Part shown: one piece after another, positions 1-54,700 of the stretch
How positions within the stretch are numbered: position 1 is the first letter of the stretch
Layout of the letters: every line of letters begins with the position of its first letter
Source: Candidatus Omnitrophota bacterium
GTDB lineage: Bacteria; Omnitrophota; Gorgyraeia; Zapsychrales; JBAZNR01
DNA: 64,000 nucleotides
Direction: 5' to 3'
NCBI GenBank assembly: GCA_041649175.1
Contig: JBAZNR010000001.1
Coordinates: 322,332 to 386,331, forward strand
Notes under the pieces: model-generated
Told to the model about the DNA's origin: nothing
The model's database searches: none
What the model saw: the letters and a program-made list of their open reading frames with translations, nothing else
Made by a program: the position numbers and the translations under genes

Positions 1-3000
1 CAATCTCCCGGTTTTCCTAAAGATTCAGGAAGGCCGTTGATGACAACCTCTGAGAAATTTGTCCCTAAATAATCTTTGCCGGCTTCTCTTAAAACACCAA
101 TTCTTTCCGCGGGAACTTTTTTTGATATTCCCGAAACATAAAGGCTGAAACTATCGCGCAGTCTGGTTTTTTCTAAATCCAAATTAAGTCTTTTAGCGCG
201 CTTGATAACACCTGCCCTGGTTAAATTAAGCCGGTCGGATAATTCCACCACATGCGGCAGGCGCTTTTCTTTTGAGGCGGCTATCTCTCTTTTGATCTTT
301 AAATAAGTATCGATAAGATCCACATCGTCTTCTTTAGTCAGCACAATATTTAATACCTTAGCGCGGTGCTGGGTCCACGTTATGGATTGATTTGTCCTTC
401 TTGCTAATTCGATTTTTGTCGGAGCTCTTTGATAAATTTGAATGAGCTCTTGATAAACAGCCCTTAAAACATCATCAGTGATTTCGGTCGTGAAAAGGCC
501 GCTGGTTACGTTTCTTGACTTATTCGCTGCGGCGTTTTCTGCGTTTACTGTTCCCCAGAAAAATGATCCAAACAATAAACCGCCCGCAAAAGCATTCAAA
601 TCAGTTTGATTGCTTTCTTTTTTTGGTTCAGATAAAAGCCCTTTTTTGCGCCCAGAGCTCGGACGTAATTCTGCCGCAACCCATGATCTCTTAGGCTGGA
701 GCATTTGATATCTTTGATAAACAATTTCCGCCGCTCTTGTCGCGTACCTAAACCAGAAATGATTGGCAACAGAATTGGTGTGTGCTAAAGAAGCTCCGAT
801 GTCAGGATGAGTCAACATTGATACTTTTCGTTTAAGTCTTTTAATATAATCTTCTTCCATCTCATGTAGCTCATCCGGGTTAATACCAAAAACACGGCAC
901 GCGATTTTATAATTATTCGGCTGATCCCCCAGGTTCCCAGGGGCTTGGTTGTAAAGATCAGGTTTCTCTCTCCTTAGAGCAGCAAGGCTACCGGCTTTCT
1001 TTAAGGCATCATTGATCAAGCCACAGATAGATGTTTTGACAAGCCTTTGAGCATTTTCAGTATTTTGATGCCTTTGCGTCTTTTGTTCGTAATATTTAAT
1101 TGATTTACTTAACTGCGAAAAGAGATACTGATTTTTCTGAATATGTTCACGGACTGCCCCCTGATGGCTAAGCTTAAGCATTTTACCGGCTTTTGCTTGA
1201 TTACCGTTATTCAACCGTAAGGCCGCGTAAATAACCATAGATTTGAATATCTTTACGGGAGGATAGAATGGAAAATCGAAAATCGCAGCATCTCCGGCTA
1301 TCGATTGTCTGTCAATTCCGTGCTTTCTTTTTAGAGCATCTCGATAGCTCTGATCTCCGCCCAGAATAATATCCGCTTCTTTATCTCTCCACGTTCGTTT
1401 CAGTACGGTAAGAATATACAAATACTCGATTTCTTCCCAAGAAGAACCCGCGCGCATAGCTTCTTGTAGTGTTGTAATCATAGTGGATATTTTAGCAGCA
1501 GGCTTTTTAAGAAGCATATATGTGGTCATGGTGCGGGCAAAAACGCTTTTTATCTCCTGCAATGATCTCTCTAATTTAGAAAATTCCATTTTTCCGTCAT
1601 TTATAAATTCATAAACTGTTTCTTTGTTTATGCCGAGTATCTGAGTAGATTTTTCTTTATTGTTCTTTGACAAAAGCAAAGCCGTATAAACAGAGAATAG
1701 TTTTAAAGTATGGACTGTCGGGAAGAAAGGCAAGTCAAGGTTAATAAGGCCTGACGGAACAGATTGATGAGTAAGCTGATACTTCCTCATGCTTTTTGCT
1801 AACGTATCCTGTTCTTGCATCCCTAACACAGCTCTAGCGTTTCCTTCATGCCATTTGTAAAATTGCAGAACATGGTAAATATATGACCGTTCGATCTCTG
1901 CCCATTTATGCTGGGCCAACAGGTCTTCCAAACGCTTCACCAAAGCTCTTCTTTGCTGGATAGAAATATTATCAAAATCAGATATTGCTTGAGAAACTTC
2001 TGTTGGGCTGTTTTCCACACTTCCCCATAAAATCGGCAAGATGGACGGAATAATAAAGGCATTAAGCGTTTTTTGCTTAGATAGGGACGGAATATTTTCT
2101 CTTACCGGTAAAGGCCAGCCGTGCTTTTCAAATTCGGCAATAATTTCAGCGCGGCGATTGTAATAAACGACCTTAAACGTCGAATTGATCATGCGGGCAA
2201 GTTCTTCCCAGGAAATCGGTTGCCAATCTTTTCGCGGAGTAGATTCGTAATAAGCATCCACTTCTCTCACCAATTGCTCCATCGAGAAAAATTGAAAAAC
2301 AATTTTTAATCCGTCATTGAGTTTTCCGCGCAGCGACGCGCTACCTGGGCTCATCGCTAATTGCTCAGCCAGGCGAATATTATTCCTATCCTTATCGATG
2401 ATATCTACTTTAAGATTTTTTAACCTTTGTACTTGCGTTAAATGATCCTGCAATTGAGCGAGTAAGCGATTTTTTATTTCTCTTACCTTGCCCTCTCGAA
2501 GGCTTAACACAATACCAACTTCGTCATAGCTCCACTCTTTACCGTTTTTGGTCCCTATTCCGTAAAGCAAGAAAAGGATGAGCCGCGACCGAGGATCTTT
2601 TAAAGAAAAAATAACACGCAAGAAAAGATCATTTTGCTGATCAACAATAAGCCATCTCTTTTCCGCGGCCACAGCGGCAATTTCGTTGAAATGTCGTTGA
2701 AGATCAGAAGCTTTAAATCCGGAATATTTTGAGAGAACTTCTAATGTCAAAGGAACACGCTGATCAGCGGGGATTTCTAGCAAGGCCTGTTCAACCCTTT
2801 GCGCAAAGGCTTCCCTTTCAAATTGAGGAACCGGGATAACCTTAACTTTAGGTTTCGGCGGATTATCTTCTTTTTTAGGTTCCCGTTTTACATTTGTGTT
2901 TTCTTCCTTGGGCCTCTTTACGGTAACGATTGCCAAAGGTTGGCGATTTTCTTTTCTGGGATTTTTTCTACCACGAGCCGCGCGCGAAGGCTTTACGATC

Positions 3001-6000
3001 TCTGCCTCTTTTTTCGAGATTAAATTTTGTAAAGCAGCTTTAAACTCGCCTTGCAGCCTCTTCGTCTGGGCCGCTTCCATTTTAGGATCATAATCTAAGG
3101 CTTCTTTAAGCGCCTCAGCCGCGCGGATAGTTTTTTCCAAATTGGCCCAGGAATGTTCTTTGATCTTTCCATCAACAATAAATTTCTTAAATTTTACCCC
3201 GAGTTCTTTTGTCTTCTTTCCAACGATCTGCCGGACGCGTTCTTTGGTCAATTCAAAAATACCGGCGATATCCTCCAAATACCAATGTTCTTTGGGATTT
3301 TCGGCAATGATCCGATAAAAGAGAACTAAAATCAAAGCATCTCTTTGATTGTTCATATCTGCTAAAAGCCACAAGATTTCTTCTCTTTGAGATGAGACAT
3401 CTAACTCCCATTCCACGTTAGGAACGGTATTCTGCTCAATTTGCAAGCCTTCGTGAGCTTCAACACTCTTCCGTCCTTCCACTGGATCCCCGAGGCGAAC
3501 AAAGGTAATGCGCGGTCTGCTTTCTTTTTGACCTCCATTGTTCCTCTGCTCTTTACTTTGTTTAGGAATTCTTATCGTACGGCTATACTTGGCCTTAAGC
3601 AAGTCATGGACTCTGTGCCGTATCCAATTAATGGTATAGGTCATTAATTGTATCCCGCGCTCTTGATCAAATCGGCCGGGCCTTAAAGCAAAGAAGACGC
3701 CTTCCCTGGCAATAGCCAGAAGTTCTTTATCAAGAAAAGCATGATTTAAATATTTCCCAAATTCTTGAAAAATCAATCCCGTATTGGACTCCACAAAATA
3801 ATTGATAATCTTTGACCTTAAATATTCAAATTGTTCCTGCAAAGACGCATCAAAACTGACCAGCCGATAAGCTTTCACTAATATAAGCTCTTCTTCCGGT
3901 GTAAGATTGTGGACGGGCTTACCTAAAATTGTCTTGGCCGCATTGATCGCCGTCATTTCCGCAGATTCCTGATCAGTATTATCGGTGGAAACTACTCCGA
4001 ATAGGGACATCGGAATAAAACAATTTACTGAACTGCCCTGGGACGACTCACTTTCAGGTTCCAAAAACTGCTTATCATCTCTGACAACTTTGTCTTGCAC
4101 AATGCGATAGTTCACTGTTCTTGCAGTCGCTCCGGTAAGATTTTCTCCTCTTTGCGGAAACGCCCTTCTTAAAGAAGGAGAAGAAAATTGAGCAAAGTTC
4201 CAGACGATGGCGCTGATGTTCAAATGATCTGTCTTTATAATGACTTTTTTGCCGCTTTTGTCCTTAAATCCGTCAACGGTAATCTCATAGGGGCCGACAC
4301 GAATTAACTTAGTAACATATTGCCCCGTTTTCCCGTCAAAGAAAATAACTTCATCACGTTCCCATTCAGAGTCCCGCCGGGAAATACCTAAACGGCGCTC
4401 AATATAAAATGGAGTTTTATAATACCAGCTCACTCGGGTAGAGCCGACGGTGGTCCCGCCTCCCTTGTTAAATGTCACTTCTCTGGGGCGAAGGATATTC
4501 CGGTCAAAATTCTGAAATGCCTTGACGCTAAAGGGGCGTAAGTAACCGTTTGTGATTGGAATAACTACGTTTGAATTATCCTTCCCGTCGCCCAGAAGAT
4601 AAAACACATTACCTTTTTTCTCAAAAACAACATAATTAACAGGATTATTCCGCTCAACAACAGCCAAGTAGCGCGACTGAGCCCTTTCTCTGTAAAAAAT
4701 AACCGGAAATGGATCACGGGAATAAAATCTAATAAATCGAATTCTCAGATTTCCGAACAAAATTTCGTTATGGTCTTTTGGCAACGTAAAAGGTTTATTT
4801 TGGCTTAAATATTTCATCACGGCTTGTTTGCGCGGCAGCTGATAAACATTTTCTAAAACCCGGTCGGCAAATTCCGCTGCCGCGCCGTTATAATAAAGAT
4901 CAACCGAAGTAGCTTTGTCTCTGAACTGGATTTCTTCCTTAATGGACGGATAATTTTTATAGGCCGGAACCCAAGCAAATATTCGGCCTTCTTTTCTCCT
5001 CAAAATAAGGACATTGTCTCGGTCGGTTAAGTCAACCAACTTCACCTCAACACCAACAATGCGTTCAACTCTCACCACGCCGGAGAGCTCCTGCGGAAGC
5101 AAAATAACAAGATCCCCTCCCATTTTTATTCTTGGTTTTGACAATACGTAAGTTAATTTCTTTTCTCCCGCGCTGACTAATCCGAACAGAACCGGAACGC
5201 CCAATATAAAACATCCTAAAGATTGCGTCTGATTTTCCGATCGGCTGATACCCGCTACTTGTTGCGGTATTTCATCTTCCCATGCAGGCGTAAAGGCAAA
5301 ATAGATAAGTTCCGTCGAATGGCCCAAATGATATTTCTGAATAAAATCTTTAACACGGTTATACCGGTCTCGAGAATCTTCGGCGAGAAACTCTTGATTG
5401 GTCCTCGGGAAAATGTGGTGCAACTCTTTTCTTTGAGCTCTGTTAAGATCCTTTCGCAGCATAGCCTCAACGATCAAATGCGCCCACAAATACGGCTTAT
5501 GCTCTAAAACAAGGTTGGTGTAAAACAGCTCTCTTAAGATCTGTTTACGGGCGTGTAAATTTTCTTCTGAGAAAGATTTTCGGCTCAGATGTGATTTAAA
5601 AGCGGTCCAGTGATATACAGCCCGCAAATAGACCATATCTAAACGATTCGTGACCCTCATCCATTGACGCTGTCCAAAAGGTGTGCGAGCCCACCGGTAT
5701 AATTTTTGATAAAGGTATGTTTCTTCGATCTCTGTCACAAGATTATGGGGTCTTCCGGATAAGACATCAGAACCAAGCGGGATAACGATTTGCTCGATAT
5801 TTTGATCCTGAAGAAAATAATCCAATCTAGAACGCGGCGCTACGGCATACCCTCTGGCCGCTTGGATAGATTTGAACAACTCCGCCTTGCGTTGTCCACG
5901 GTTTCCTCCGATGCGATTAAATAAATTCCAACGTTCGGCTAAAAACTTAACCGTTTGCCAACGGGATAATTCATGCAAAATGATGATGCGGTCAACTTCC

Positions 6001-9000
6001 ACAAAATTTTGCTGCGGCAAGATATCTGTGGCCTGTTTTTGCCCGTTGTGATCGGTATAATAAAATGCTTGATACTCCTCAGGAACATATTCTAGCGGCA
6101 TCATACCGGCAAAAATAGAATCGCCTAAGATCATGACCTGGATCTCCGAAGTTCCTACCAAAGACCAGCGTCCGGTTTGAAGCATCTGGTAAGTTACGCG
6201 CGATTCTAAAATCGGGTCACGGCTAATTAAGAGAACAACTTCTTTTTCTTTGGATACATTATTTTGGATAACATCACAATTCCACCGGGAACGTTCAATA
6301 AAGGGAAGTAAATTTTCGGCAATGAGGAATATATTTTTTCCTTGTTCTTCCTCGGCTAATTCCGATCCGGAGAAAACAATATTAAATTTCCTCAAGAATT
6401 TAACCACATCCGGCAAGGGATCGCTCAAGCTCACGGTAATTTTCTGCGCGTCGTCCGAAGAAAGCTTTCCGTAAGCCGCCAAATTCACCAAACGAACAAT
6501 GAGATTCTTTAACTTTCTAGAGATCGGTGAACGCAAATAATAACCGATGGTTCTCCACGCTGTTAGACGCTTATGTATTTCTTCTTCAGCCTTTTGGGCG
6601 TCTTTCTCCAGGCTATGCGCGACAAGAACAAGCCAATTTCTTAAACGCTGTGACAAGGTATCCAGGTATTCATCTTCTTCGACGAGCTGCCTCGAAAAGA
6701 TCGTTTGAGGATCATTTTTATCTTTCTGAAATAAACGCACGCCGTTTTCACCCGCCATCAAAAGACTTTCAGAAATCCCAAAATACCCTCTTTGCGGAAT
6801 ACTGTTTTGAACGGGGTGAGATGTAACGATCATATTGACTTCCCGCCCGGTCCTTCCAATAAAATGGATCTTGTCAATAAATCCCTCACGAGATTGAATG
6901 TCAGAGCGGATATCACCCATCAAAGGCGAATAAGCGTCAAACAAGGCTTTTAAAACAGGGGCTTTTAATGATTCGATGCGTCTTAGATCCCGTTCCATCA
7001 TATCCAAAGCGGTCACGCCGGAAAATCCCGCGTAATTAGCTTCCAAGACCGGGCCGCCATGAATAACTAAAATGCCCTGACGCCCGTAATGATAGATATA
7101 ATAATGTTCTTTCATCCAGGCAAACATTTCCTGCATCAAGGGATCTTGCCGGAAATTTTCCATAGTCAAAGGCTCTTGGCCTTCTTGAAGCAAGGTTTGA
7201 TTATATTCTTCAAAAATAAATTTCCCACCGCCCATCGCAAACCAAACTTTCGTTAGCTGCTCGTGATCCATCATGGCCGCGATAAATTCAACTTCATTCG
7301 AACCATAAAGAAGAATAAGGGGAAGTCCGTCGACTTCTTTGTAATGGCGCAAAATTTGATAAATACGTAAATTTTCTTTTCCCTTGCCGAATATGTCCCC
7401 CGTTAAAACGATCTTGGTGGCGCCTTGCGCGAGCGCTTCCGCCATTAAAAGCTCTAAAAGTTCACCGTCGCCTTCAATATCGCCGATAAAAGCAGTACGG
7501 GGAACCTTGGAAGGTTTTCCACTTTTGTATTTCTCGATCTCACGGATAAGTTTTAATTTATTGCGGGCAAAGATCAGTTTCTTTATTTGAACCGCCAACT
7601 CCTCAATGCCGATGACCACCTGGGAACCGGAACGAGGGTCTTCATAAAAAAGCCCTTTAGCGGATTTAATGAGTTCCAACAGCGGCGGTAAAACAATAAG
7701 AAGCCCGTCTCTGGTATAAATTTCCCGGACACTTTTTGTAATATAATAATGATTTGCTTTTAGTTTTTTCTTCAACTCCCGAGCAATATCAATAAGTGTG
7801 CGCAAATGGTCGTGGGAAAATATTTTCTTATGCTTATCCATGTACACAGCCATTTGTTCCAATGTCTCATCCGAAAAGATAAGAAGCTTGGCCAATTTAG
7901 TCAAAAGGCCGAATATCTTAACCACATTTTTAGCCAACATGCGGTCTTGGCCGATGATTTCCCTGCTGTAGGCTAAAACCATTTCTTCAAAGATCAATTC
8001 CCAAACCTGTTCGGCGATCTCAACGGGCGGATGCGTTTTAGGGTCAGCTAAAGCCTCATGAAGAAGAACCACGCCGTCTTGCGGCGACTTATAAGCTAAG
8101 TGCTTAAGATCAGGGCTGAATTTGAAAATAGCTCCGTGAGCCATCTCATCTTTCAGCCGTTCTCTGATGACTGAAAATTCTTTTTCGTTTTGCCCTAAAA
8201 TTTCCGTAAGAAATTCTATGTAAACTTCTCCGTCGGCAATGATGTTGTCTCCTTGAAGCGTCAGGCTTCCGGGATGGCGGGCAAAGAAGTATCCGTTGAC
8301 CGTCCCAAAAATAAACGGAACGGAAAAGATCGGTAAGGCGGCAAATGAATTAAGCGTTTGATTTGATCTATGTTGCGGCTCTAAACGCACAACTCCGGGC
8401 TCATGAATAGATTGCACGCGCCGGCTGATGATCGTTTTATGTTTTAATCCGGCCTTTGTGAATAACGGTTCCCAAATAAATAATCGGTCCAAATAAATAG
8501 CAAAGATCCCATAGCCTTGAGATGAAAAATGTTTTGGCAATTGCTTTAAAATAGCCTGCATTTTTCTCTTAGAAATAAAATCGTTGTGGTTATTTGTCTT
8601 TCCATCGACCGGTTCCGGCGCATGCCAAATGATCACATCGTAAATACCCAGCCCACGCAAACTATTGTGTTTGAACACGCGAACGTTGTTTGTCAAGCCG
8701 TTATGCACAAGATTATGCCCCGTCAGCAAAATACTTTCTTCGGCAATATCGATCGCGTCTACCTGCTTGGCCCCGGCTAATATAGCGGCGATGACATCAA
8801 TGCCGTTTCCGGGCCCGATCACAAGAACTTTGCTTTCAGGCTTTAAAGTGCCCGGGATCTCTAGCGCGCGCACCATGCGCAGAGACTCAAAATGACGAAT
8901 ATCATCGGCAAAAACGATCGTCTGATAGATTCCGGGATAATTAAATACGGTTAGCTCACGGCCGAACATAGGGACAACGGAAGGCGATAAAAGGCTTGGA

Positions 9001-12000
9001 TTTAGATCTTGTGCGGATCCTGTCGAAGACTTGCGGAAAATCAAAACCGCCATGCCGGCTTTAGCTATCCCCCACCAGCCACGGAAAGGTAAGACAGCTA
9101 AATAAAGCGCCGACATGACGGAAATTTTGTCGTCTGAGACGTCGTTAATTTTATTGTAACTCGGTGCCCGTGATTGAAAAGATGTTTCTAAGATTTCTTG
9201 GCGGCCTATCTTCACTATGAAAATAACTAAAAGGGTTGCCAAAGACATTAAGACGCCATAGAGAACAAATCCATTAAGAGAATTTAAATTTTCTAATTTT
9301 TTATGCCGTCGGTAAAGATCGACCAAATGTTCGGTCGCTTTGGCCTGGCCGACAACGAACGGTAACGCCGTTTTTTCCGGAGAGAAATCGTTCCAAGAAA
9401 GCGGAAAAAGGAACGCTCCATCCATCCGATAAACGCGCAAACCCGCCGTCCGCAATAACACCGCGGATGGAACAACATCGTGAACGCCGCCGGTCATTGA
9501 CGTAAACGCGGCATGCCGCCGTTCTCTGCTGAAAATAAGGCGCGTTGCCGTATAAATAAAAGACGACTGCTGTTTAGAGATCACAAAATATCTACTGCTC
9601 TCTAAAACACCACGCAGCGGATGCGGCTCGCCGCTCCAATCGGCAATAATAACTTTATGATCAGCGGAATCTTCCGGGGAAAATTTAATCGGACGGTTGT
9701 TGACAGAAACTTCCCGAGTTAACGCATTGGATTCGAATGTCTCATTTAGATCCGGAGCAATGATCATAGAAATCAGCGGCCAGCCTTTATAAAGGACGCT
9801 TAACGCGAAAACATATTCGTTTGTGTCCTTTTGGGCATAAGCCCGCGTTCCGTCAATGGGGTCGATCACCCAAATAAAATTCGTGTGGCCGAAGTTAGCA
9901 CTATTTTGCCGGATCAAGGGCTCTGGGAGGCCGATCTCTTTTAGATCTTCCTCGGCATGAATATAATGCGTCGGGTATTTTGTAGATATGAACTCAAATG
10001 CCATTTTTTGCGCTAAATGATCTGACGATGTAACCAAAGATCCGTCCGGCTTTCTTTTGACAACCGCCTGATCACGATTCATTTTGATCGTATCAGCGAT
10101 ATGATTTGACATGTTTCTGGCAAAGCGCACTATATCACCGACAAAATCTTCGTCTAATTCTTGGGCCACCGCCGTCACGTTTAATTTCTCTAATTCCGGG
10201 CGATATAATCTGTTGACCCGATTATGGAAAATCGTCTGGATACGAAGCGGAATAAGCGAATTCGGATGAGACACAAACCATTCGGTCGATTGAACATAAG
10301 ATTTGGCGGCCGCCATTGTGTATTTATAACGCGGTGTGGAGATATTATGCAGTCTGTCGGCGGCTTTAATGATCTGCAGATATTTCATTAGTAAATGGTT
10401 TGTAACATCAAAGGCAAGCAGGCGGCCTAAAAATGTTTCATCTTCTTCTAACGAATATTTCTTGCTCAACAGAAGAATACATTGAATGATCAGCTCAACC
10501 GCTGCTGCGTCATCAGTTAATTTTAGTAATTTTCCTCTTAACTCTTCGATCAACTCCGTCCGGGATAACGGACCCTTGTAATCTTCCAAAACATCGTGCA
10601 ATAGCGCGACCGCCGAAATAATTTCAAACCAGAATTTCGGCATATGGTCAAATTCAATTTCTTCGTAAATTCTAAAACTAAAAACCAAAGTTTTAAGCGT
10701 GCTTAATAAATGCAAAATATACGGTTCCCCGTTAGAACGGATCTGACCGGCATGATATTCTCGCGCTATGCGAAATACGCCGTCTAAGAAGCGCTCATCA
10801 AACCATGGCCGGAAAGATTTGATCTTGCGCAAGATCCTTTTAAACTGATTTTCAATGAATTTCTCCGTATATTCGGCCGCGATTTTCTTATAAAGATAAA
10901 CACGGCCAAAGATCGGCTTGCCAAGATACTGGCTTTCAGTGCTATCCTTGGAAACGAATGCACGGACGGAATAGGGGATCACCAGCCAATAAGAATCAAA
11001 GAATTTTTCCGCCGTCATCAAGATCAAACCGCCGTGGCGCGCATTATTAACGATATTGCCGGCCATGATATTGACCGCCCAGGGCTGGTCTTCTTGGGCA
11101 TTTAGCTCTAATTTATATTCGACAAAGTTATAAGTAATAAGATCAAATTTTTCGTCTTCTGAGTTCACTCGGTAGTCGATAATATTGTCGAGGTAAACAA
11201 TTTCGATTTTCTCCTCGATCTCCGGCTTTAACCTAAAGCGGCCTGTCGCAGTTTTATTAAAAGAAATGCTAATACGCCGCTCTAGATCTTCACTTAAAAC
11301 TTCATTGGGCTTAAGAAACCAATGCAGGCCGTAATCTTGCTGCAGCAACACATTCTGTTGGCTCTTAGAAGCCGTCACAATGATCTTGAAATCCCGAAGC
11401 CCGGCTTCCCACATCAAAGCGGCAAAGCGCTGGGCTTTAAAATTGTGCCAGCCGTCTTCATATTGCGATATCCCTCCGACAACATTAGCGCGCATCGTTC
11501 TCCCGGAATCTTTCTTCTGTGTTTTAAAAAGCTCCGGAATGATGACGCGGGTCAAATGCTGATAGATCCCGCCTTTTTCATCAAAAAAGTAAGGATGATT
11601 AATGGATCTTTTTTGGGCAAGATAGGCTTGGAATTTCGTACTGCGCCAGATCATGGCTAAGATAAATCCCAAAGCGCTTAATCCTAAGAAGAATTCTGCA
11701 AAGATAAACAATTCTTCACGGTGATCAGAAGGAGTGGCATCATGAGCAGGAATCGCCCATCCTCTTTCCGAAAAAAGCGATTTGATCCTATCTCGATGAT
11801 CGGAAGTAAGCCGCCTAACATGAAGAATTTCTCTAATTTCTTTCCATGTCAACTGATTACGACGCCCAATAGACATTGCGTCAACTCGCTGGGCTAAGAA
11901 ATCCATTTCCCTTTTTAAGAACATTTCTTTTTCTTTTGCCAACTGCGCTAATCTTTCCGGGCTAAAGACCGGCGTTGGCCAGCCATAATCACGAAATAAC

Positions 12001-21000: not shown

Positions 21001-21719
21001 GTAACAATGATAGACTGGAATTTTCCGTCTTTAATATTGATGCCCAGTGTAAATAAATTGCTTTTCCCGTCCTGATCCTGCTTGGTCTGATAAAAATCAA
21101 TTTTGTAAGCATCAATGACCGCCAAAAGGTTTTCTAAAACTACCCCTTGCCCTAAGCGATGACGCAAAGCGCTTCTTATTTCTACCGTTATATCCGTCAT
21201 GAAGACAACTTTGACCGGACGGATCTTCTTTAAAGCAAGCTCCCAATCAAGTCTTGGATTTATTTTGTAACGTTCCTGGCTGAACAACAGAACCTCGATC
21301 GTATCCCTGAGGATATCTTGATGATCTGATAAATATTTAATGTCTTCTTGAATGATCTCTTCTTCGCTTAAATGGGGTTGAAGGATACGCGTTTTTTCAT
21401 GTTCGAGGAATCCTAAAACAGCGGCCGGGTGGTCTTTCATCAGCTCAAAAACTCTCCAGTGAATAAGCAAAGTCCCTTCGCTTTCGGAGACCATCATCGC
21501 CGGGCCGGGTAAAGCAACGATGACAATGCGAGTTAATTTCTTAGAAACAATAAGATTACCTAAGTATGGAACGATCTCTTCGACCTGCCCGTAGAGCTCT
21601 TCTTCTTCATCATGGGTGAGAAAGCCATTATGGATCTTAGAAATAAAAAACTTGCTCAGGACATTGGCAGATAAAAATACGGTGGGCCTTTCAATGGCGG
21701 CAAACTCGGCCGGATAAGC
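1..21719 (-). CDS. Segment C of the giant ORF: C-terminal side, 3' end beyond the window start. The first in-frame ATG is at 21495-21497, but protein-like sequence begins at 21719.
   Basis: Frame decoded at 57, 181, 541, 781, 2101-2340, 3181-3300, 7381, 8761, 9841, 10021, 10561, 12901, 15361, 20281-20460 and 21481-21719. Confidence 0.6.
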
Positions 21720-45700: not shown

Positions 45701-48700
45701 TCTTGATTTTTTGCCGGCTGCCGTCATATCGCGGGAACAATAGATCTTTGGCTAATCCGGTAAAATGGTTTATGGTAGGTTCAACGATAACCAAACGCCC
45801 TAACTCCGGAATTTCTTCCAAAAGCGCTGAAACTTCCCAATCGGTTTGCCCCGGGCCGATCTCAAGCAGTGTTTTTTCGGAGAATTGAACTGATTTACTC
45901 TTTAAAAGAGCAACGCTGTCTCTGACGGCGTCCCTTATGTCAGCACGAGTAACATGCCAATGGCGCTGAACCCGATTAAAAGGAACTTGATCAAAGATGT
46001 GAACATATTTGCGATGCCCCGCAATGATCCTATTTTCTCGAGGAGTAATAACCGTATGGGGATTTTCAAAACGTATTTCATAAGTCCAGTGGGGAGAAAG
46101 ACGATTTAAATACTCCATCGCTCTGTCGCGGCTGACCAGCCAGGCTTCTTTAGGGAAATTGCTCGTAGATGTATTGACAACTTCCCCAAACAATACCGGC
46201 AACACAAACGGCGCAAAACCAAATCCGGCAAAGGCGGATAATGTTTCGCGCGAGTCTGTTGAGCGCGTCCTGTCATCGGAGACGCGGAACACAAGCTCAT
46301 AACCTATCTCGCCTGTTCTTAAAAGCAGGTCACGAACAACCAATGTATCGACATCAACGGCAATGATCGGTTTTAAATCGCGAAAAACTAATCTCTTGTT
46401 AATGCTGCGTCCAATGGCGGCCGATATAATTTTATAAGAAGAACGGGCCATTTCGCCGTCAAAGAATTGAAATATTTCCATTGTGACACGTTCTTCTTCT
46501 TGTTGGGCTAAACCACTTTCCAAAGATCCAGAAACAAAGTTGACGGATAAGCCTTCACTTGTTAAGGCCATCAACTCAGCTATATCGCTATCCGCCTGCG
46601 GGTCTATAGCGCGAGATAATTTATCAAAATCAATCTTTATAATCCCCAGCGGATACTGATTGATCATAACCAAACCATATTCGCCATGAGTTATCCGGCT
46701 TTCAAAAAGTTCGTCTAAAAGACGTTGGTCTCCGGCCGTAACATGTTGGAATAAGGCAAAGCGAATTTGCTGAGATTCGAATGGAAATACAATGGCCTGA
46801 TCGGTCAAGTAACGTAAGGCAAATTCTTTTCCAAAAAGCTCTCTGCTGGGCGAGCCTGCGCTAGGATTAACACTACCAAACAATACCGGCACAAACCCAA
46901 ATCCGACAAAGGCGGGAAGCGCTTGGCTTCCCGATAAATATTCATACGTTTCACGGCCGGTTTCGTGTTCAACAAACTTAAACGGCAAGTCATCAAGAAC
47001 AAAAGCTCCGGGCTCTTTTTTCATCATCAGGCTAACCCATCCTTGAAAATTATTATCAGTATCAATGCGAATAATATTTTCCGGTCTTAAACGATACTGG
47101 ATTTCGTTGATCACCATAGATTGGGCAAGGCGGCCTGAAGTATTTTGAGACGTAAAATCAATTTGATTAAATCCACTAAATAAATATCCTCCCGGACGAA
47201 GTAAATGATAGAGGGCTCTGTTGACCGCAATTTGATCGGGGATATAGGATAAAACACAATATCCCATAATGATCAAATCAAAGTTTCCTTCAATTCTTTC
47301 GAGGTTTTTTCCGTAACTTATATCCATCACATAATGATGCTGATGTAAACGGGCAAGAAGGTCATCCATATTAGAAAATGGATGAGAAAAATAATCGTAC
47401 CGTTGATGCTCAAAATATTCTTTTAAATGGGCAAGATCAAATAAAAGCCCTTCTTCCAGATTGATGGAATGATATTCAAAATCATACCCTTCTTCTAAAA
47501 GTTCAATGATACTAACCCCGCGCCCAACGCCAACGATAAGAACTTTAGGCATTGTTCCTTGTTCTCGATGTTGCCGTAATAACATTGTCAGAGCCCCCGT
47601 AAACCAACGCTTTTTGTCAGAATAAAGCTCGTGCAAAGACGCAACCCCGCGGCTCACCGCGTCTTCGCCGATCCGCTTCGCATAATTCTCAGGGACAGGT
47701 ATTTGACGATAAGATGCTAGTGTATTCCCCATGCTATCAACCAATCCAATGATTACCGGCACAAATCCAAATCCGGCGAAGGCGGAAAGTACGCCAACAG
47801 TTCCAGCGGTTGTCCGAGCGCCTTCAAAAGCCGCCGCGCGCAATTTATCCGCGTCGAGCTTGCGCAGATCAATATAGATCTTTCCGTATGTTTCTTTGTG
47901 ATCGGTTTTTCTGATCCGGTAAAGCCTTCCCGACTTCTTCCATAAAGAAAGGGTTTCAGCAAAGAACCTGGCGCCATCGGGCAAGGTCAGAGTTGAGCTA
48001 ACAGATGTAAAGCCTCGGCCTTTGACCCAGAAAAGAAGAATAGCTAAAGCGGTTTCGGAATACTGCGCCCGTTGATCTTTGTTCATAATACTGAAGATCA
48101 ACCTCGTAATACGTGTTCCCTTAGATTCAATGGCGAACACAATAGCGCCCTTGTCGGTTGTTATTTGCCCGTGAAGAATATTATCGCTGTTTTCTTCGAT
48201 ATGAAGCGAATCAACGATATCCTCTAAAGATGTCCCTGAAATCCACTCTCGGTATAAAGCCTTTTCTAATTCAAAGAGGTTTGGCGTAGCGGCAACCAGA
48301 AGGCTCGACACACCAAATCCGGCGAAAGCATGAACGGACACAGAGGCTTGTGAACCCGAAGAAACCGTTTTCTCGACGGGTAAAATAAATAATCCTTCCA
48401 AGCGCTTTACAACATCATTCATCGTTTTGGGCTTACGTTTTTTCCGATTTTCCTGCGACATCTGTTGGATAAGCAAGGAAATCCCGCTAATGCCGGCAAT
48501 GTCATCATCCATTTCCAGGACGAAATCGATCACTTTCGCGAAACTATAAATGTCAGATGCAAAAAATCTTTTGGTTTCCGGCGCGGAAAAACCATTTGAT
48601 CCACCTTTCATCGGCCGGCCCTTGCGTACGGACAAACCAAAATCAACGATCATCACTTCTTTAGCTGCGTTCACTAGAATATTGTCCGGCTTAATGTCGC

Positions 48701-51700
48701 CATGAACCCATCCGGCTTTATGGATACGCGCCAAGATCTTAGCGGCTTTGATGAGAATATCCATTTTGTCTTTGGCGCTAAAGTTAAGGAAAAGTTCTGA
48801 ATCTAAATCGTAGCCGTTAGAAATTCCTTTAAGCTTGATCCAGAAATTCCCTGATTTATCATTGCCCGCCGAAATAATTTGCGGAATTCCCTCTTTAACA
48901 CCACGCCTGCTTAGATCACGTAAGACAAGAACTTCATCTGTATTAAGATCGTGGGCTACACCGGAATTCGCGGTTACCTTATAAAAGACAGCTGAATCTT
49001 GCGGGTCTTGATAAATATTAGAGAAGCTGCCATTGCCCAAAACAATTGCAACGGGAATATCTTGCCCTGCGGAAATTTGAGCAGAAGTTGCTTCGGTCCC
49101 AATGCCGGTTTTTGGTAATAGGCTTTCATCGAATACGACTTGCCCTGGTAAAGCTGGGACATCGCCCCAGATAGACACATCCAATAGATGATCATCAGAA
49201 ATAGAAGAGGCCGCTTGATGATTAAACTTTTTCCACCAGCCACGGTAGGCGAAAAGTCTCAAGCGGCCTTTTAAACCAATCCAAGATAATTGTAAATTTA
49301 AACTCAAGAATCTTAATCTGCTTTGAACAGATTCAAACCATTTCTTGATCTCTTGACGATAAATCCATCCAAAAACCGCTATGCCGATACCAGGAATAAA
49401 AACCAACAGATGAAGCGGCACTAAAAAGACAAAGAGCTGATTTTCATGTTCACGATCTGTGCTAGCAGCCGCTAATCCATTCGGAGAGCCTGCTGGTAAG
49501 CGCCTGCCTATATTTTCTTCATCAGCAACAAAAGCAACCACACCACCTTGCTGATCTCTAACCGTCCTAAACCCGGAATACTCTTCTTGACCTGTCAGAT
49601 CAATCCAAGATTGCCATCCATCAAACCGCTTGATCCCCTGAGCACCGAAATTAGGACGATAAAAATTCCTGAGCAGCCCTTCCGTAGTCCATATGCTCGC
49701 CGTCGTTGCTTGATGACGTTCTCGGCCAATGGTCAGCGCCGCGGCTATAAGGACCCGGCTTAAAATACGTAATCCTTGTTTTCCTTTATTGCGATAATCA
49801 GGATGAACGAAAAGCCCGTCTCCTTCTTGAGAATACCTTAAGTCATTTTCCCGAAGGAAAATAATGCCATAACGCCTAAGGTTTTTCTCTGCTTCTTTAT
49901 TAAAACCGATATTATTAGAATTCCTATCAGCCGCTTCAAACAACATTTTACGTCCTCTATCCTTAGATGACGGATAGACCGCAAAATCCAAATACGCGAT
50001 GTGACGTTTTTTGCTTAGATCAAAAGTGTCTAATAAATAGTAGGCATTGCTCACCGTTGACACCACAGCAGCGCGCAAAGTAAAGAGAATTGTATTTTTC
50101 CCTGAACGATAAACCGTCCATCCTTGCTTGATAAGTTCGTCAAAATTTAAAACACCCTCCGGCCTTTTAACCATACCCAAGGCCACCAACCCAAATACCG
50201 GAAAGATCATGCTATGGAGAAGCTGCATTTTTTTGGCCTCGGAAACACCTTGATCGGACTCAAGCCGGTAGAAGTAAATCCCGGAAGCCTGGCTGGAAAG
50301 ACCGAGAGAAACGGTGTGGCGCCCGATAGAACGTATTCCAAGGTCAACATGCTGAACTTCGCGGCCTAAAACATCAAAGACCTTTAAAACAATTTTACGC
50401 GGCCGGTCTAATTCAAATTCAATAGTTGTTTGTCCGTTGAACGGATTGGGATAATTTTGTTTTAATTGGAAGCTTTGTGCTATCGGATGGAGAGGGTCGA
50501 CCGCTGTCGTCCCGGAAAGAGAATCAGCCATATTGATAATATCGTCTGCGGTCATTTCGTCGGTTACAGAAAACGCGGTCGCATCAAAATGAGTATCCAG
50601 CCACTGACGATCGTCATCGGAAATCGGACGCGTGTGCACATTAATGCCGATAAAATCATACCCTGTTGAGAACGGGCCGATCAAAGCCACGTTAAAGCGA
50701 TAGACTGTATTTCCGTCAATAACAACATAATTTCTTTCAACCGTATACGTGGTATCTAATCCGGCAACCGCGCTATCAAAGGCGGCATATGTCGCATCAA
50801 GATCGACATTCGTTAAAGAAGCCATCGTATTGTCGATCCAGTTATTGTATTGCGTGTATTCTGTATACGCAGGTATTTCAAAAGAAGCAACTCCTTCAGA
50901 TTGAAACATCAGAGCAAGTAATTGCGGGCTAAGATCGCGCTCTTCATCGTGAAAAGCAACCCAGGTTGTATCAACCCCAATACCATTTTGGCCCTGCCCG
51001 GCAAAAGCAGGAGTGAATGCAGTCGGAGAATTCGGCGGAGGAGGAATGTAAAGATATTCTAAAAGAAGTCCTTGCAGATCAAGATAATAATCCCTTAGAC
51101 GAAAATACATATAACGCTCACGCGTTGTCACGTCAAGCTCGTCCAAGGTGTGACGAGGTTCTTTAGTGACAACAGGCGGAGCGCGCGGATCATAAATTTC
51201 ATATTGTCCGTTAGATAAGATCTTAATATCACCAGAAGCAAGTGCCGCGCGCCAAGGCAAGACAACAAAGAATGCCATCATCATGCCGACAAATAACGTC
51301 ATAAATTTTCGCACAATGGGGCGCGTGATCGCTTGATTGATAGACGTTATGACCCCTTTGGGATCAGAAGGCAACATTTGCGCCCTTGAAAACGTTTTCT
51401 TATTTTGAAAAATAAATCCATCTTTTTTAAGATGTGAATAATAGAGCCCGGCAAAAACCGCTAATCCAACGATGGGAACAAAGATAAAAGGCGTGATGGA
51501 TAATAATTTATCTGTTCTTGTTCCGCCGATATGGTTGAGCGCTTTAAATTCTTGAGGCCGTTCGATATCAACGGTAACAATACCTTCGATATTTCTCACC
51601 AACGTATCAACAATTTCTTTATTGGTCACATAGTTAAATCCGGATAATCTAAAGACCAAAGTCCCTTCGCTGGGCTCACCGACCGGAACATCAACGCTTT

Positions 51701-54700
51701 CCACGTGCGCGACCAGCGGATTATCCTTAGCCACTAAAAGTTCTCCGATGCGCTTGGCAATGCCCGGAATATTTTTTACTAAAACTTTAACCGTAATACT
51801 AATACGTCCTGCCACATAGGCATAAACCGTAGCGGCGTCAACTAGCCCAAGGCCGATCGCTAAATGCAACTCATCGCGGTCAAATTGCGAAAAGCGCTTC
51901 GGAGAAAAACGAGCCGGAAGAAGAGATATGGACTTATCCGGGCCTACGAAAAGGCCCATCTTTTCTGTAAATTCATTGATCAGCCTATAGGTCGCTTCTG
52001 TCATTCCTACCTTAGAAAATTCTTCTTTCAAGCGCCGTTCGCCCTCACGAATAAGAGCTAATTTGAATTCATCGGCAGTCATTTTTCTTTTCTGCCCCTT
52101 GGTCATAAATTTCCGGACAAAATCTTCATTTTCAAACCTTGTTATTAACTCTAAGGATAGCCGTGTGCGCAAAAGCTTGGCCAGCGAAATAAGCCCTTTG
52201 TCTTTGATATTCTTGGCAGAAATAGCAAAACCGGTGATCTTATGGCTAAGCGCATTTTGAAAGATCATACCTGTTTCTAATGGAGTATTTTCCAAAATAG
52301 CGCGAGATAGCGGTGTCGCCGGAGAAACCGCATCCAATAAGGCATCATCAAAGATCATAAAACCTTGATACCCTTCATCAAGGCCAAGTTCGGGATAATA
52401 CGCCAGATCAAGCGCGACAGCTCCTTGGGGAAGCTCAGTCACCAAAAGGCTTGATCCGGATTTTCGGTCTCTTTCCTTTAGGAATCCGACATAAATATTC
52501 CCGTTTAATGAGTTGTAGATCAGGTTCAAATTATCCCTCGGGTCTTCGGTGAGCATAATAGCGTCGGAGATCAGTTCTTGATTGATCTTTTGGCTTTTTA
52601 AAAACCCTTCTAATTTAAATAACCAATGAGGCTTGACCGCTTCACTGCCGATGCCATAACGATAGCGCCGGTAATCCTGATGGCTCATGATCTGCAGCTC
52701 CCAAGGACGGATGCGCATATCCTCTTTAAATTCCACCACGTCCGTAAAATCAACGTGAATAGCGTAATAACCTTTTCGTTTAAACTCCGCATTCTCGGCT
52801 TTGCCTTTTAGCTCCCAACTTAATTTTCCAAAGGCTTTATCAGGGTCACTTACTAAAACCATGACCCCTAAAAGATCGGGCAGTTCGGCTAAAGCACTAC
52901 GGCTTGAGCGGGAAGAATGGATCTTTTCATAAATAGCGGCAATGCTTTTAGCTCGCACCATAACGATCACGCTATCATCGCCATCTTCCCTGATAAGAGC
53001 CTCGAAACGTCTTTTCACTTCGTCTAAAATAGCTTCAATATCGCCATAATTTTCCACGCCTAAATAGTCGGCAACAGCCGCCTTTGTTTCCTGATATTCT
53101 TTAGGCATGGTGATCATCATGACTCTGTTTTGCAAACCAATGACCATGCGGGGAAAATCAATACGGTCGGCCAGCGGAATAAAGATGTGTTCTATTTTCT
53201 TAAGCATCGCTTCTTTTTTATTCTTAGCATCTTCAGCCTGGCGGCTGTCTTTGCGGGCTTCGGCTTCTTTTTCCCTAACGGCGGCCAAACCGGCAGAAAT
53301 AATAAGATCGGCCGCCGCTAACATCAAGACCCTGATCCGGCCGTCGGTCAATCGGATGACCATATTCATATAATATTGGACAGCCCATCTTCCTGCCAGC
53401 GCGCGGACCACTTGATTTAAATACGGAAGATTGATGATCTCACGGCTGCGCTTTATGGTAGGGCCGATCACTTTTAGATCTTCTGCCCTTGAGGGGAATT
53501 GGGCGGTTAACTGTTCTATGACCTCACGTCGGGTCCTTTCCGAAATATGCCAAGAATGAAGAAGCCCGGCAATGATCGTCGTATCCACGCCTAGCCAACG
53601 GGCTAAAACATAAGCCACATCTAATCCGTGCTGCATAATGCCTTCGGCGGTGTTGAAGCGTTCATCTAAAGAAGAAAGAGGAGTCGCTTTTAGTTTTTCT
53701 AATACAATGCGATAAGCTTGTTCAATGATGCGCGCATCAGCATTAGGATAATTGTTTTTAAAGGCACCGGTAACGTCGGATAATTCCATATTTCCTTCCC
53801 CATACGGAAAATCCGCCACAATGCCGAAAACCGACAAACCAAAAGGAGAGAAGATAAATGAGCTGAGCTTCGTTTCTCCTGTTTCTGCTATTTCAGCCGG
53901 CTTAGATACTTCTTCGACCAGTTTTATCGGCGTAACAGCTGCCATCGTCTCCACAGGCTTATGGTTCGGCTTTCCTGACCTTTTTGTCATACTGCGATCG
54001 GTAAAGTGAACAACGATCAAATAAACGATCATCCCGCCGATCATAGTCGCTAAGAACTTTGTCGTGCTCACATGATAGGAGCGGGCATACGCAGCTGCAA
54101 AGGCGGGAGAAGTAAGAATAAAGCTTAAAATTAAGGCGATCATTCCACTCGGTAAAATAGCGTTAAGGACTGTTTCGTTACTTTCTCCATCGACGGCGGA
54201 ATTATTTTCCCCTGAGATTTTGATCTGATAAACTTCGCTGTTTTCCATGCTTAAGAAAGGACCCATATCTTGGCTGACAAGCTTAATTCCCGGGAAACGC
54301 GTTAGCAAAAGATGCCTGGTCGCCTCGGTGGTGACCACCATCGTAAAAATTCCTCCCTTAAAATGAGTCTTTACAAAATCCGCAAAGAAGTCGAAGACGC
54401 GCGACGCGAATCCTTGTCCGGCAAGGCTTCTATGAAGAGCAATGCTGCCGGAATCAATGTCGATCCGCCCGCTATCATGCCGCTTAACACTGAACTCTCT
54501 TAAGAATAAAACACTGCCATCACCTTCATAAACATGGCTGTAATAATGAACAGCGTTTTCTGTCTCGAGGTAGCGATTTCGATTAACATTCGATCTCCCT
54601 CTGCCTTGATACGGCTCAAAAAGAGCAGATTTTTTAACAACAATGAAGCGATAGCTTGTAATTTCATCCCGCTCATCGATAACAGAAGCATAAACATATT

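Follow-up and report, generated by a model that had tools for sequence, protein, structure and literature searches.

Giant open reading frames (ORFs) are common in the phylum Omnitrophota and poorly conserved (Seymour et al., PMC10066038). In this phylum, giant genes of up to 85,804 codons have been reported, including those of the Archaeovorins, whose type protein from Velamenicoccus archaeovorus has 39,678 amino acids (aa). Archaeovorins carry GT5, methyltransferases, NUDIX, TPR, HATPase_c, Lysine_decarbox and glycolytic enzymes, together with many transmembrane (TM) segments, a divergent SecA_DEAD and N-terminal C39/S8 peptidases; cleavage was suspected by the authors, to whom the cleavage points were unknown (West-Roberts et al., 2023, bioRxiv 10.1101/2023.11.21.568195). 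Recently, 916 proteins of at least 10 kaa were described, with multi-enzyme metabolic clusters of the class Gorgyraeia as class 1; Module 1 (signal transduction/regulatory) contains PF08241, PF02518, PF00583, HAD and HD, and Module 2 (sugar metabolism) contains PF08323 and others. These long proteins have approximately one TM helix per 370-1000 residues and are mostly unique in sequence, and 46% of them are TM-only, which was read as an architecture of membrane-anchored cytoplasmic domains (Nielsen and Lui, 2026, bioRxiv 10.64898/2026.06.07.730766). Few features of ultra-small host-dependent bacteria are as poorly understood as their giant multi-enzyme genes, and it is asked whether the product stays one chain or is cut, where its parts are located and why it contains enzymes of cytoplasmic type. 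Here, we describe a stretch of 64,000 nucleotides (contig JBAZNR010000001.1 of assembly GCA_041649175.1, positions 322,332 to 386,331; hereafter the window), which is an internal 64-kb fragment of one giant minus-strand gene of at least 21,332 codons.

In a six-frame count, one minus-strand frame of the window contained 0 stops in 21,332 codons and was open at both ends, and the other five frames contained 943-1643 stops each:

3-63998, minus strand, giant ORF, internal fragment (stop count in six frames)

An ORF listing of the window had a longest entry of 156 aa, abnormal for 64 kb of prokaryotic DNA, because the uninterrupted frame leaves the window at both ends. All domains named in a preliminary description of the window therefore sit within one giant ORF, a governing context that was absent from that description. 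The GC content by codon position (0.52/0.36/0.43) is of coding type, and GC content along the window (0.41-0.47) and GC skew are both uniform. That several genes had been misread as one was ruled out, since no stop interrupts the frame and unit starts, for instance that of the cofactor-independent phosphoglycerate mutase (iPGM), lack a methionine. The translation was cut into overlapping 1,000-aa pieces and run against Pfam and NCBIfam. About 35-40 units follow one another along the polypeptide, many of them complete enzymes or regulators; more than 20 distinct Pfam/NCBIfam families tile the chain and no single repeat dominates. Self-similarity is limited to a four-copy family of methyltransferase paralogs and a few small internal repeats. 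DNA tandem repeats are essentially absent from the window.

Like the Archaeovorins, the chain is a single ORF of tens of kb, tiled non-repetitively by enzymes, with many TM segments and with units highly divergent from their free-standing relatives. From the Archaeovorin/class 1 domain set, GT5, Methyltransf_11/12, HATPase_c, GNAT, HD_4, TPR and Lysine_decarbox were found. Unlike in Archaeovorins, neither a glycosyl hydrolase nor a lytic transglycosylase was found in the 21-kaa fragment; AceK, sigma-70, RelA/SpoT, iPGM and phosphoribosyl pyrophosphate (PRPP) synthetase are not mentioned in the main text of West-Roberts et al., which was searched for these terms. The chain shares with the class 1 proteins many distinct Pfams, among them PF08241, PF02518, PF00583 and HD of Module 1 and PF08323 of Module 2, a unique sequence within a recurring type of architecture, and a comparable density of hydrophobic segments (approximately one per 340 aa, versus one per 370-1000 aa). 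At 21,332 codons the fragment is longer than the 10,000 aa used as criterion by Nielsen and Lui, and the criterion of West-Roberts et al. is >30,000 aa. Because the window matches the published class in ORF size, tiling, Pfam families, hydrophobic-segment density and uniqueness, the "signalling toolkit" of the preliminary description is of a known kind: it corresponds to the published Module 1 and is a component of a known giant-protein class, not a new regulatory island. A reading as non-ribosomal peptide synthetase or polyketide synthase was rejected, as no defining domains were found in the window. With the giant multi-enzyme class already known, the addition made here is modest and consists of a junction motif together with evidence from composition and signal peptides. 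The class 1 study takes hydrophobic segments as TM helices, whereas most of those found here are copies of one weakly hydrophobic motif between complete units. The words motif, linker, cleavage, cysteine and sigma are absent from the text of Nielsen and Lui, and a conserved junction or linker motif goes unmentioned in both preprints, as does cysteine depletion.

A conserved junction peptide and an exported-type composition

The junction consists of a polar stretch, L-(N/S/H)-(A/S/G)-F, an F/G/P-rich run of approximately 14 residues, (F/W)-G-(T/L/S)-V and again polar residues; its short form, of about 20 residues, is LN[ASG]F…P…FG.V. A strict regular expression matched 26 times, against 0.5 matches expected in shuffled sequence, and a small hidden Markov model (HMM) built from junction instances detected 38 copies in the giant ORF. 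The 21 stronger instances are given below, with scores from the junction HMM, and 17 weaker ones complete the 38.

61749-61844, minus strand, junction aa 719-750 (score 22.2)
60399-60491, minus strand, junction aa 1170-1200 (score 24.1)
56736-56837, minus strand, junction aa 2388-2421 (score 37.6)
53787-53891, minus strand, junction aa 3370-3404 (score 20.3)
51420-51527, minus strand, junction aa 4158-4193 (score 16.7)
47715-47813, minus strand, junction aa 5396-5428 (score 23.6)
46848-46940, minus strand, junction aa 5687-5717 (score 18.3)
46158-46265, minus strand, junction aa 5912-5947 (score 26.3)
44520-44615, minus strand, junction aa 6462-6493 (score 23.6)
39894-39998, minus strand, junction aa 8001-8035 (score 25.7)
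39054-39155, minus strand, junction aa 8282-8315, before iPGM (junction HMM)
35418-35516, minus strand, junction aa 9495-9527, before asparaginase (junction HMM)
33297-33395, minus strand, junction aa 10202-10234, before AceK (junction HMM)
31467-31568, minus strand, junction aa 10811-10844, after AceK (junction HMM)
25929-26021, minus strand, junction aa 12660-12690 (score 20.9)
22863-22967, minus strand, junction aa 13678-13712 (score 23.7)
17490-17585, minus strand, junction aa 15472-15503 (score 23.8)
13374-13481, minus strand, junction aa 16840-16875 (score 26.6)
8274-8378, minus strand, junction aa 18541-18575 (score 27.8)
5151-5243, minus strand, junction aa 19586-19616 (score 21.6)
522-623, minus strand, junction aa 21126-21159 (score 29.3)

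The junctions abut unit boundaries within 3-12 residues. For instance, AceK is flanked by two of them, one ending 6 residues before it and the next starting 3 residues after it; iPGM is preceded by a junction ending 12 residues upstream and asparaginase by one ending 4 residues upstream, and the methyltransferase, asparaginase and PRPP synthetase units are likewise junction-flanked. Only two weak instances touch domain envelopes, and these only at the envelope edge. Codons within the junction vary freely at synonymous sites, including both serine codon families, which indicates that the peptide is under selection at the amino-acid level and is not a DNA repeat; a DNA repeat or recombination site was ruled out by this variation and by the absence of tandem repeats. 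The junction HMM had no match among approximately 190 fetched proteins and the long ORFs (>=600 aa) of the fetched loci, and the motif therefore looks lineage-specific. A single conserved peptide between complete enzymes supplies testable unit boundaries as well as candidate points of export or cleavage.

A hydropathy scan of the giant ORF found about 50-60 hydrophobic segments of two classes, most of which are junction copies. The minority class comprises classical TM helices rich in I/L/V/A, clustered at aa 757-960, 1576-1690, 10856-11060 and 11415-11500, and a few such clusters, like the junctions, set units apart; in total, 18 classical helices and 38 junction segments were counted in 21,332 aa. 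Two of the clusters are large:

61119-61730, minus strand, cluster of about 6 classical TM helices, aa 757-960 (Hessa-scale sums near or below 0)
30819-31433, minus strand, cluster of about 7 classical TM helices, aa 10856-11060 (Hessa-scale sums near or below 0)

Neither of these clusters matched a family; each could be an integral-membrane or transporter-like unit, or they could be what truly anchors the chain in the membrane. The sole notable DNA tandem repeat of the window lies right behind the first cluster, at 61016-61073, where an 18-bp unit in 3.2 copies encodes TQRTQETQSTQKTQETQK (aa ~975-995).

Hydrophobicity was assessed as simple 19-residue sums on the Hessa biological scale. The junctions had a median of +4.5 kcal/mol and none of the 38 fell below zero, while the 18 classical helices centre on approximately 0. 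The junctions show no positive-inside charge bias, and paralogous S-adenosylmethionine (SAM) methyltransferases occupy both sides of successive junctions. Because of this weak hydrophobicity, the lack of charge bias and the placement of the methyltransferases, which would come to face opposite sides, a topology of alternating single-pass helices was rejected, and the junctions are unlikely to be ordinary helices of that kind. Their length and hydrophobicity are similar to those of a signal-peptide hydrophobic core.

The giant protein has an exported-protein-like composition, as it is almost free of cysteine: 24 were counted in 21,332 residues (0.11%), depleted uniformly across the units, versus approximately 1.1% in free-standing iPGM homologs. 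In the genome with the closest GT5-like homolog, the secreted GT5-like protein contains 0.12% cysteine and its cytoplasmic neighbours 1.17%. Sec signal peptides occur on free-standing GT5-like homologs (P0148, P0149, P0150, P0152, P0153 and P0155 among the retrieved proteins) and on free-standing methyltransferase homologs (P0041, P0054, P0057, P0073, P0079, P0082, P0090 and P0097), and the position of the signal peptide in these relatives is that of the junction in the giant protein. Both the cysteine depletion and the signal peptides bear directly on where the units are located. Free-standing homologs that bear signal peptides are also depleted in cysteine, and several other, unrelated long multi-unit proteins are equally poor in it (P0048 0.02%, P0063 0.04%, P0040 0.08%).

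Probable location and possible processing of the chain

On balance, we favour the reading that the gene encodes a giant multi-enzyme protein of Omnitrophota type, membrane-threaded or exported, in which the junctions are punctuation and the units have their site of action at the cell surface or inside a partner cell. The giant chain would be threaded into or across the cytoplasmic membrane, and the junctions may be punctuation marks for its export, anchoring or processing. The units would then form a toolkit directed toward a host or prey cell, either surface-tethered or delivered, and would not belong to the usual housekeeping of the cytoplasm; signalling and regulatory units recur in this toolkit as one component, not the dominant one. 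As ATP, SAM, PRPP and RNA polymerase are found only inside cells, an extracytoplasmic location would make delivery into another cell necessary. The closest analogy for a delivered toolkit is provided by multifunctional autoprocessing repeats-in-toxin (MARTX) toxins, proteins of 3.5-5.3 kaa with glycine-rich RTX repeats and an inositol-hexakisphosphate-activated cysteine protease domain that are exported by type I secretion. The likeness lies in a very large secreted chain whose unrelated effector enzymes are set free by processing to work within another cell; neither RTX repeats nor a cysteine protease autoprocessing domain were detected over the whole window with Pfam and NCBIfam.

Several observations weigh against this reading. 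Most units need intracellular ATP, SAM, PRPP or RNA polymerase. SecA_DEAD, C39/S8 peptidase, NUDIX, PPDK and HEAT were not found with Pfam in the 21-kaa fragment, the gene ends, where some of the missing Archaeovorin domains would sit, falling outside the window. No ortholog of the giant gene was found in the species-genome, protein and metagenome collections searched, and the best match of a methyltransferase unit was a partial phosphoenolpyruvate (PEP)/pyruvate-binding protein from a Chlamydiota metagenome-assembled genome (MAG). The window contains no marker gene. The topology argument consists of simple hydrophobicity sums. Two of the units may also be impaired as enzymes: the hydrolase half of the RelA/SpoT unit is probably inactive (HD to HS), and the Metallophos-like unit is probably not an active phosphoprotein phosphatase (PPP), being judged inactive because its metal-binding motifs are degenerate.

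The enzymes could instead stand at the cytoplasmic face for the producer's own use, the main alternative but an arrangement that we regard as doubtful. In such a metabolon-like array, the junctions and TM clusters would only tether the chain to the inner leaflet, every unit would face the producer's cytoplasm with its supply of ATP, SAM, PRPP and RNA polymerase, and the giant gene would duplicate the cell's own enzymes of metabolism and regulation in a fused and co-regulated form. The units are indeed enzyme types of the cytoplasm that depend on cofactors, several with full-length, equivalog-level scores; the free-standing iPGM homologs lack signal peptides, and the TM-only class (46%) of Nielsen and Lui was read as membrane-anchored cytoplasmic domains. 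The SAM methyltransferase paralogs flanking successive junctions, which exclude simple alternating single-pass helices, and the junctions, too weakly hydrophobic to span a membrane alone, point the same way. Nevertheless, so extreme a depletion of cysteine typifies exported proteins and, in the relative's genome, is specific to the secreted homolog; signal peptides occur on free-standing homologs of two unit families, a module like a sorting domain of the type IX secretion system (T9SS) lies within the chain, and published proteomic and structural inferences favour a surface location. The chain may alternatively be a polyprotein that a dedicated peptidase (C39/S8, signal peptidase or intramembrane protease) cuts at the junctions into approximately 35-40 proteins of fixed stoichiometry, which seems unlikely to us and could be combined with either location. 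In viral polyproteins, too, complete proteins follow one another in a single frame, and the protease recognition site recurs between them; unlike such a short site, the junction is a 20-residue hydrophobic segment, a conserved stretch longer than a protease site requires, and no peptidase domain was found in the window with Pfam and NCBIfam. In favour of cleavage, the junctions lie within a few residues of where free-standing homologs begin or end, small or polar residues come after the (F/W)G(T/L/S)V that closes the motif, and a lineage-specific pair of protease and site would yield the differing motifs (RSELR, SSSP[IL], RFSE, xGLEE) of other long multi-unit proteins with the methyltransferase unit. 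West-Roberts et al. suspected cleavage, with the cleavage points lacking.

A more far-reaching reading appears distinctly improbable. In it, the chain would be a string of complete proteins with an export-and-processing junction, one case of a general, hitherto undescribed grammar of lineage-specific punctuation (LN[ASG]F…FG.V here; RSELR, SSSP[IL], RFSE or xGLEE in other giant proteins), and its cargo would be a kit for host or prey takeover. The sigma factor would redirect host or prey transcription, AceK, the RelA/SpoT unit, the kinases and the Fic-like unit would rewire regulation, and LOG, PRPP synthetase, asparaginase and iPGM would divert nucleotides and carbon to the parasite. A MARTX-like or polymorphic toxin or an anti-phage defence locus, with the kinase, Fic, RelA/SpoT, LOG/SLOG and PRTase-like units as its effector or toxin domains, is very improbable. 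PADLOC matched the kinase unit to MkoA (3e-17), PD-T4-6 and mad6, a methyltransferase to mad2 (4e-11) and the PRTase to ShosT (1e-6), and NCBIfam gave weak matches to MzaA and MADS6; these matches, however, are all generic, fold-level and single-domain, most units are plain metabolic enzymes, and the window yielded neither a system-specific architecture nor RTX repeats, a cysteine protease domain or toxin-immunity pairs. An artefact, whether an assembly chimera, a synthetic concatenation or a non-translated pseudo-ORF, is hardly credible. Orthologs are absent from every collection searched, which speaks for an artefact, but the 64 kb are free of stops in one frame only, GC and GC skew are uniform and so is the cysteine depletion across units, the paralogs are only 30-40% identical, the junction is conserved with synonymous variation, catalytic residues are retained and no repeats are present to drive misassembly.

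Signalling and regulatory units

The preliminary description held that signalling and regulatory modules dominate. Of the units, 21 have E<1e-5; six of these belong to signalling or regulation and another six are SAM methyltransferases, so dominance is not borne out; the binomial P for 6/21 is 0.014 at a background of 10% and 0.08 at 15%, and the signalling units are probably enriched but not dominant. Full domain annotation upheld most of the individual calls, with a degenerate PPP phosphatase and an unsupported J-domain as the failures. The proposal of a packaged toolkit instead of random fusion stands insofar as complete units share one frame with a selected spacer, and the mix of methyltransferase, HATPase_c, GNAT and HD equals the published Omnitrophota co-occurrence module, which supports a non-random package; it falls short in the dominance of signalling and in the two failed domains. 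The units concerned are as follows:

52398-53639, minus strand, RelA/SpoT homolog, HD hydrolase plus synthetase, aa 3454-3867 (TIGR00691, Rel 8fr8 alignment)
48429-49040, minus strand, Hanks-type Ser/Thr kinase, aa 4987-5190 (Pkinase plus motifs)
40095-40598, minus strand, histidine-kinase-type HATPase_c with N, G1 and G2 boxes present (Pfam 3e-13)
31575-33278, minus strand, complete AceK (isocitrate dehydrogenase kinase/phosphatase), aa 10241-10808 (Pfam, NCBIfam, E. coli AceK alignment)
12930-13058, minus strand, weak sigma region-4-like helix-turn-helix (HTH), paralog of the unit at aa 20460-20667 (Pfam 2.8e-4, self-BLAST)
10335-10775, minus strand, SpoT-like HD hydrolase domain (TIGR00691, HD_4)
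6984-7499, minus strand, Metallophos-like unit with degenerate motifs (Pfam 5e-4)
3207-3806, minus strand, sigma-70 family domain, regions 2 and 4 (TIGR02937)
2448-2597, minus strand, sigma region-4-like HTH (Pfam 6e-4 on its own)
1167-1643, minus strand, two weak HTH segments (HTH_17, HTH_8) in an internal duplication (self-BLAST, Pfam)
699-911, minus strand, HPD-containing helical segment, unsupported as J-domain (HPD tripeptide)

Compared with free-standing AceK, GpmI, PrsA, RpoD/ECF sigma, Rel/SpoT and Hanks kinases, the units align over their full length and keep key residues; they differ in being concatenated and depleted in cysteine, the iPGM unit lacks the NUDIX of its closest relatives, and the RelA/SpoT unit lacks TGS/ACT. 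The AceK named in the preliminary description is present at full length (PF20423 1e-92 and PF06315 7e-86); it aligns with residues 10-563 of E. coli AceK at E=4e-100 and keeps the equivalents of K336/D457/N462/D475/D477. The sigma-70 domain was likewise confirmed, with regions 2 and 4 (TIGR02937 9e-19, 67.6 bits vs cutoff 42.9, model positions 3-159/165), as were the Hanks kinase (Pkinase 2e-10, with HGDIKPDN, DFG and APE motifs) and the separate HD hydrolase, which is SpoT-like (TIGR00691 4e-8; HD_4 2.4e-4). The long RelA/SpoT homolog does have a collinear hydrolase and synthetase (TIGR00691 3.9e-11, positions 20-386 of 687), but no TGS/ACT region was detected in it; against Rel 8fr8, the HD dyad reads HS and the RxK, DxxG and ExQ motifs of the synthetase are kept. 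Two further region-4-like HTHs are both present, although weak and below the Pfam cutoff (E 3e-4 and 6e-4).

Two of the calls were not sustained. The supposed PPP phosphatase matched Metallophos at only 5e-4 (21.0 bits vs cutoff 21.5) and has lost its catalytic motifs, which read GDIEG/GDIFGKG/GSNE instead of GDxHG, GDxxDRG and GNH[ED]. The supposed J-domain amounts to an HPD tripeptide (aa 21063, window ~809) with no statistical support: its profile gave no Pfam hit at E<=1, BLAST against the J-domain of E. coli DnaJ gave no alignment, and a single-sequence AlphaFold (AF2) model of the segment, with a mean confidence score (pLDDT) of 53, was only compatible with a helix-loop-helix and too poor to use. 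The span that had been assigned to signalling modules, 780-53825, matches this J-like HPD at one end and the start of the RelA/SpoT unit at the other.

DNA-binding-like segments cluster in the C-terminal quarter of the fragment. The sigma/HTH-bearing units at aa 16975-17206 (window 12249-13298) and aa 20460-20667 are distant paralogs with 22% identity, and the internal duplication aa 20691-20814 / 20846-20968 (within window 1029-1958) holds two more weak HTHs.

Metabolic units, other features and relatives

The metabolic and remaining units are listed below.

63678-63953, minus strand, GNAT/RimI-like acetyltransferase, aa 16-107 (Pfam 6e-9, TIGR01575 7e-11)
59439-59879, minus strand, weak GT9-like glycosyltransferase (Pfam 3.5e-4, below cutoff)
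56880-58520, minus strand, GT-B alpha-glucan phosphorylase / GT5 glycogen-synthase-like unit, aa 1827-2373 (TIGR02094 4e-25)
50229-50453, minus strand, T9SS C-terminal sorting domain-like beta-sandwich, aa 4516-4590 (Por_Secre_tail 2.4e-10, 41 bits vs cutoff 27)
46941-47711, minus strand, SAM methyltransferase A1, of the paralog family with VGxGRG motif (self-BLAST, paralog alignment)
45537-45716, minus strand, Methyltransf_11 unit (Pfam 1.2e-7)
44616-45347, minus strand, SAM methyltransferase A2 (self-BLAST, paralog alignment)
42195-43328, minus strand, two LOG/TIGR00730 (nucleotide N-ribohydrolase-type) domains (Pfam 1.6e-38; TIGR00730 118.5 bits vs cutoff 96)
39156-39893, minus strand, SAM methyltransferase A3 (self-BLAST, paralog alignment)
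37437-39017, minus strand, complete iPGM (TIGR01307 428 bits vs cutoff 330)
36363-37319, minus strand, SAM methyltransferase A4 (self-BLAST, paralog alignment)
34827-35405, minus strand, asparaginase/GatD-like unit (Pfam 2.4e-21)
30027-30164, minus strand, weak Fic-like segment (Pfam 5.8e-4, below cutoff)
27513-28457, minus strand, complete PRPP synthetase (ribose-phosphate diphosphokinase) (NF002095 1.4e-47; TIGR01251 155.7 bits vs cutoff 113)
21864-22139, minus strand, weak HPr-like domain (Pfam 5e-5, 23.6 bits vs cutoff 23)
14706-16337, minus strand, TPR repeat region (Pfam)
9402-10136, minus strand, inositol monophosphatase/CysQ-family unit (Pfam 3e-20)
8616-8849, minus strand, PrmA-like methyltransferase (Pfam 1.4e-7)

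Four of the six SAM methyltransferases (A1-A4) are paralogs with 30-40% mutual identity, which therefore go back to old duplications. The iPGM unit begins where free-standing iPGMs begin, its first residues aligning with their initiator-methionine region. The T9SS-like module is internal and terminates exactly at a junction, as if a secreted protein had been incorporated with its C-terminal tag; Por_Secre_tail is typical of Bacteroidota and the FCB group and odd in a putative Omnitrophota gene. An orphan stretch at aa 2400-3400 (window 53799-56798) matched nothing in Pfam or NCBIfam, and a search of 5.8 billion proteins returned no homolog for it at E<=1e-3; junction motifs at aa 2388, 2806 and 3270 split it into orphan units. 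Neither tRNAs nor Rfam matches were found in the window. The plus strand has a negative GC skew in 31 of 32 blocks of 2 kb, which makes the coding strand G-rich throughout; a gene on the leading strand would be expected to show this.

The nearest free-standing relatives of the units have 35-56% identity. In 185,579 GTDB species genomes, all matches to the AceK unit were ordinary AceK genes, 31-35% identical to it (best 35%). A search with the methyltransferase-iPGM-methyltransferase stretch recovered only ordinary iPGM fusions in housekeeping neighbourhoods (best 56% identity), and a scan of JGI metagenomes with the methyltransferase alignment found nothing. The closest free-standing iPGMs (P0001-P0039; loci L003-L006) are themselves fusions, iPGM-NUDIX of approximately 716 aa and iPGM-MazG of approximately 900 aa (e.g., Silvanigrella aquatica). 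A methyltransferase-iPGM fusion was seen in one case, P0021, whose neighbourhood is rich in GNAT, NUDIX, methyltransferase and Metallophos genes, a composition similar to that of the giant chain.

A profile of the four methyltransferase units had only 102 relatives among 1.84 billion representatives, many of them inside contig-truncated proteins of 2,000-6,600 aa that are otherwise unlike the giant protein. Other long proteins that share the methyltransferase each over-represent a short motif of their own (P0048, P0043, P0063, P0091, P0083, P0085, P0049, P0069, P0064 and P0112). RSELR/RSDVR occurs 13, 11, 7 and 4 times in four proteins, with RSELR 13 times in P0048, where it sits immediately upstream of the methyltransferase unit; SSSP[IL] occurs 10 times in P0083, RFSE 7 times in P0085, xGLEE/AGMEE in three proteins and GARLA 6 times. 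Each of these motifs appears to be the punctuation between units in its own lineage.

Relatives of the GT5-like unit are 44-55% identical, and the named ones come from Elusimicrobia (51%) and Ca. Omnitrophota/Omnitrophica MAGs (44-47%). An Omnitrophota fragment has 67% identity over the first 75 residues of the unit and is fused behind a PRK-like kinase unit. In an Omnitrophica MAG (GCA_015233765.1, JADFWR010000012.1, L009 3248-12594), a contig-truncated GT5-like relative at the contig start is followed by an 8,148-aa gene with an N-terminal signal anchor and GTLN-rich repeats, which belongs to a different, adhesin-like type of giant gene.

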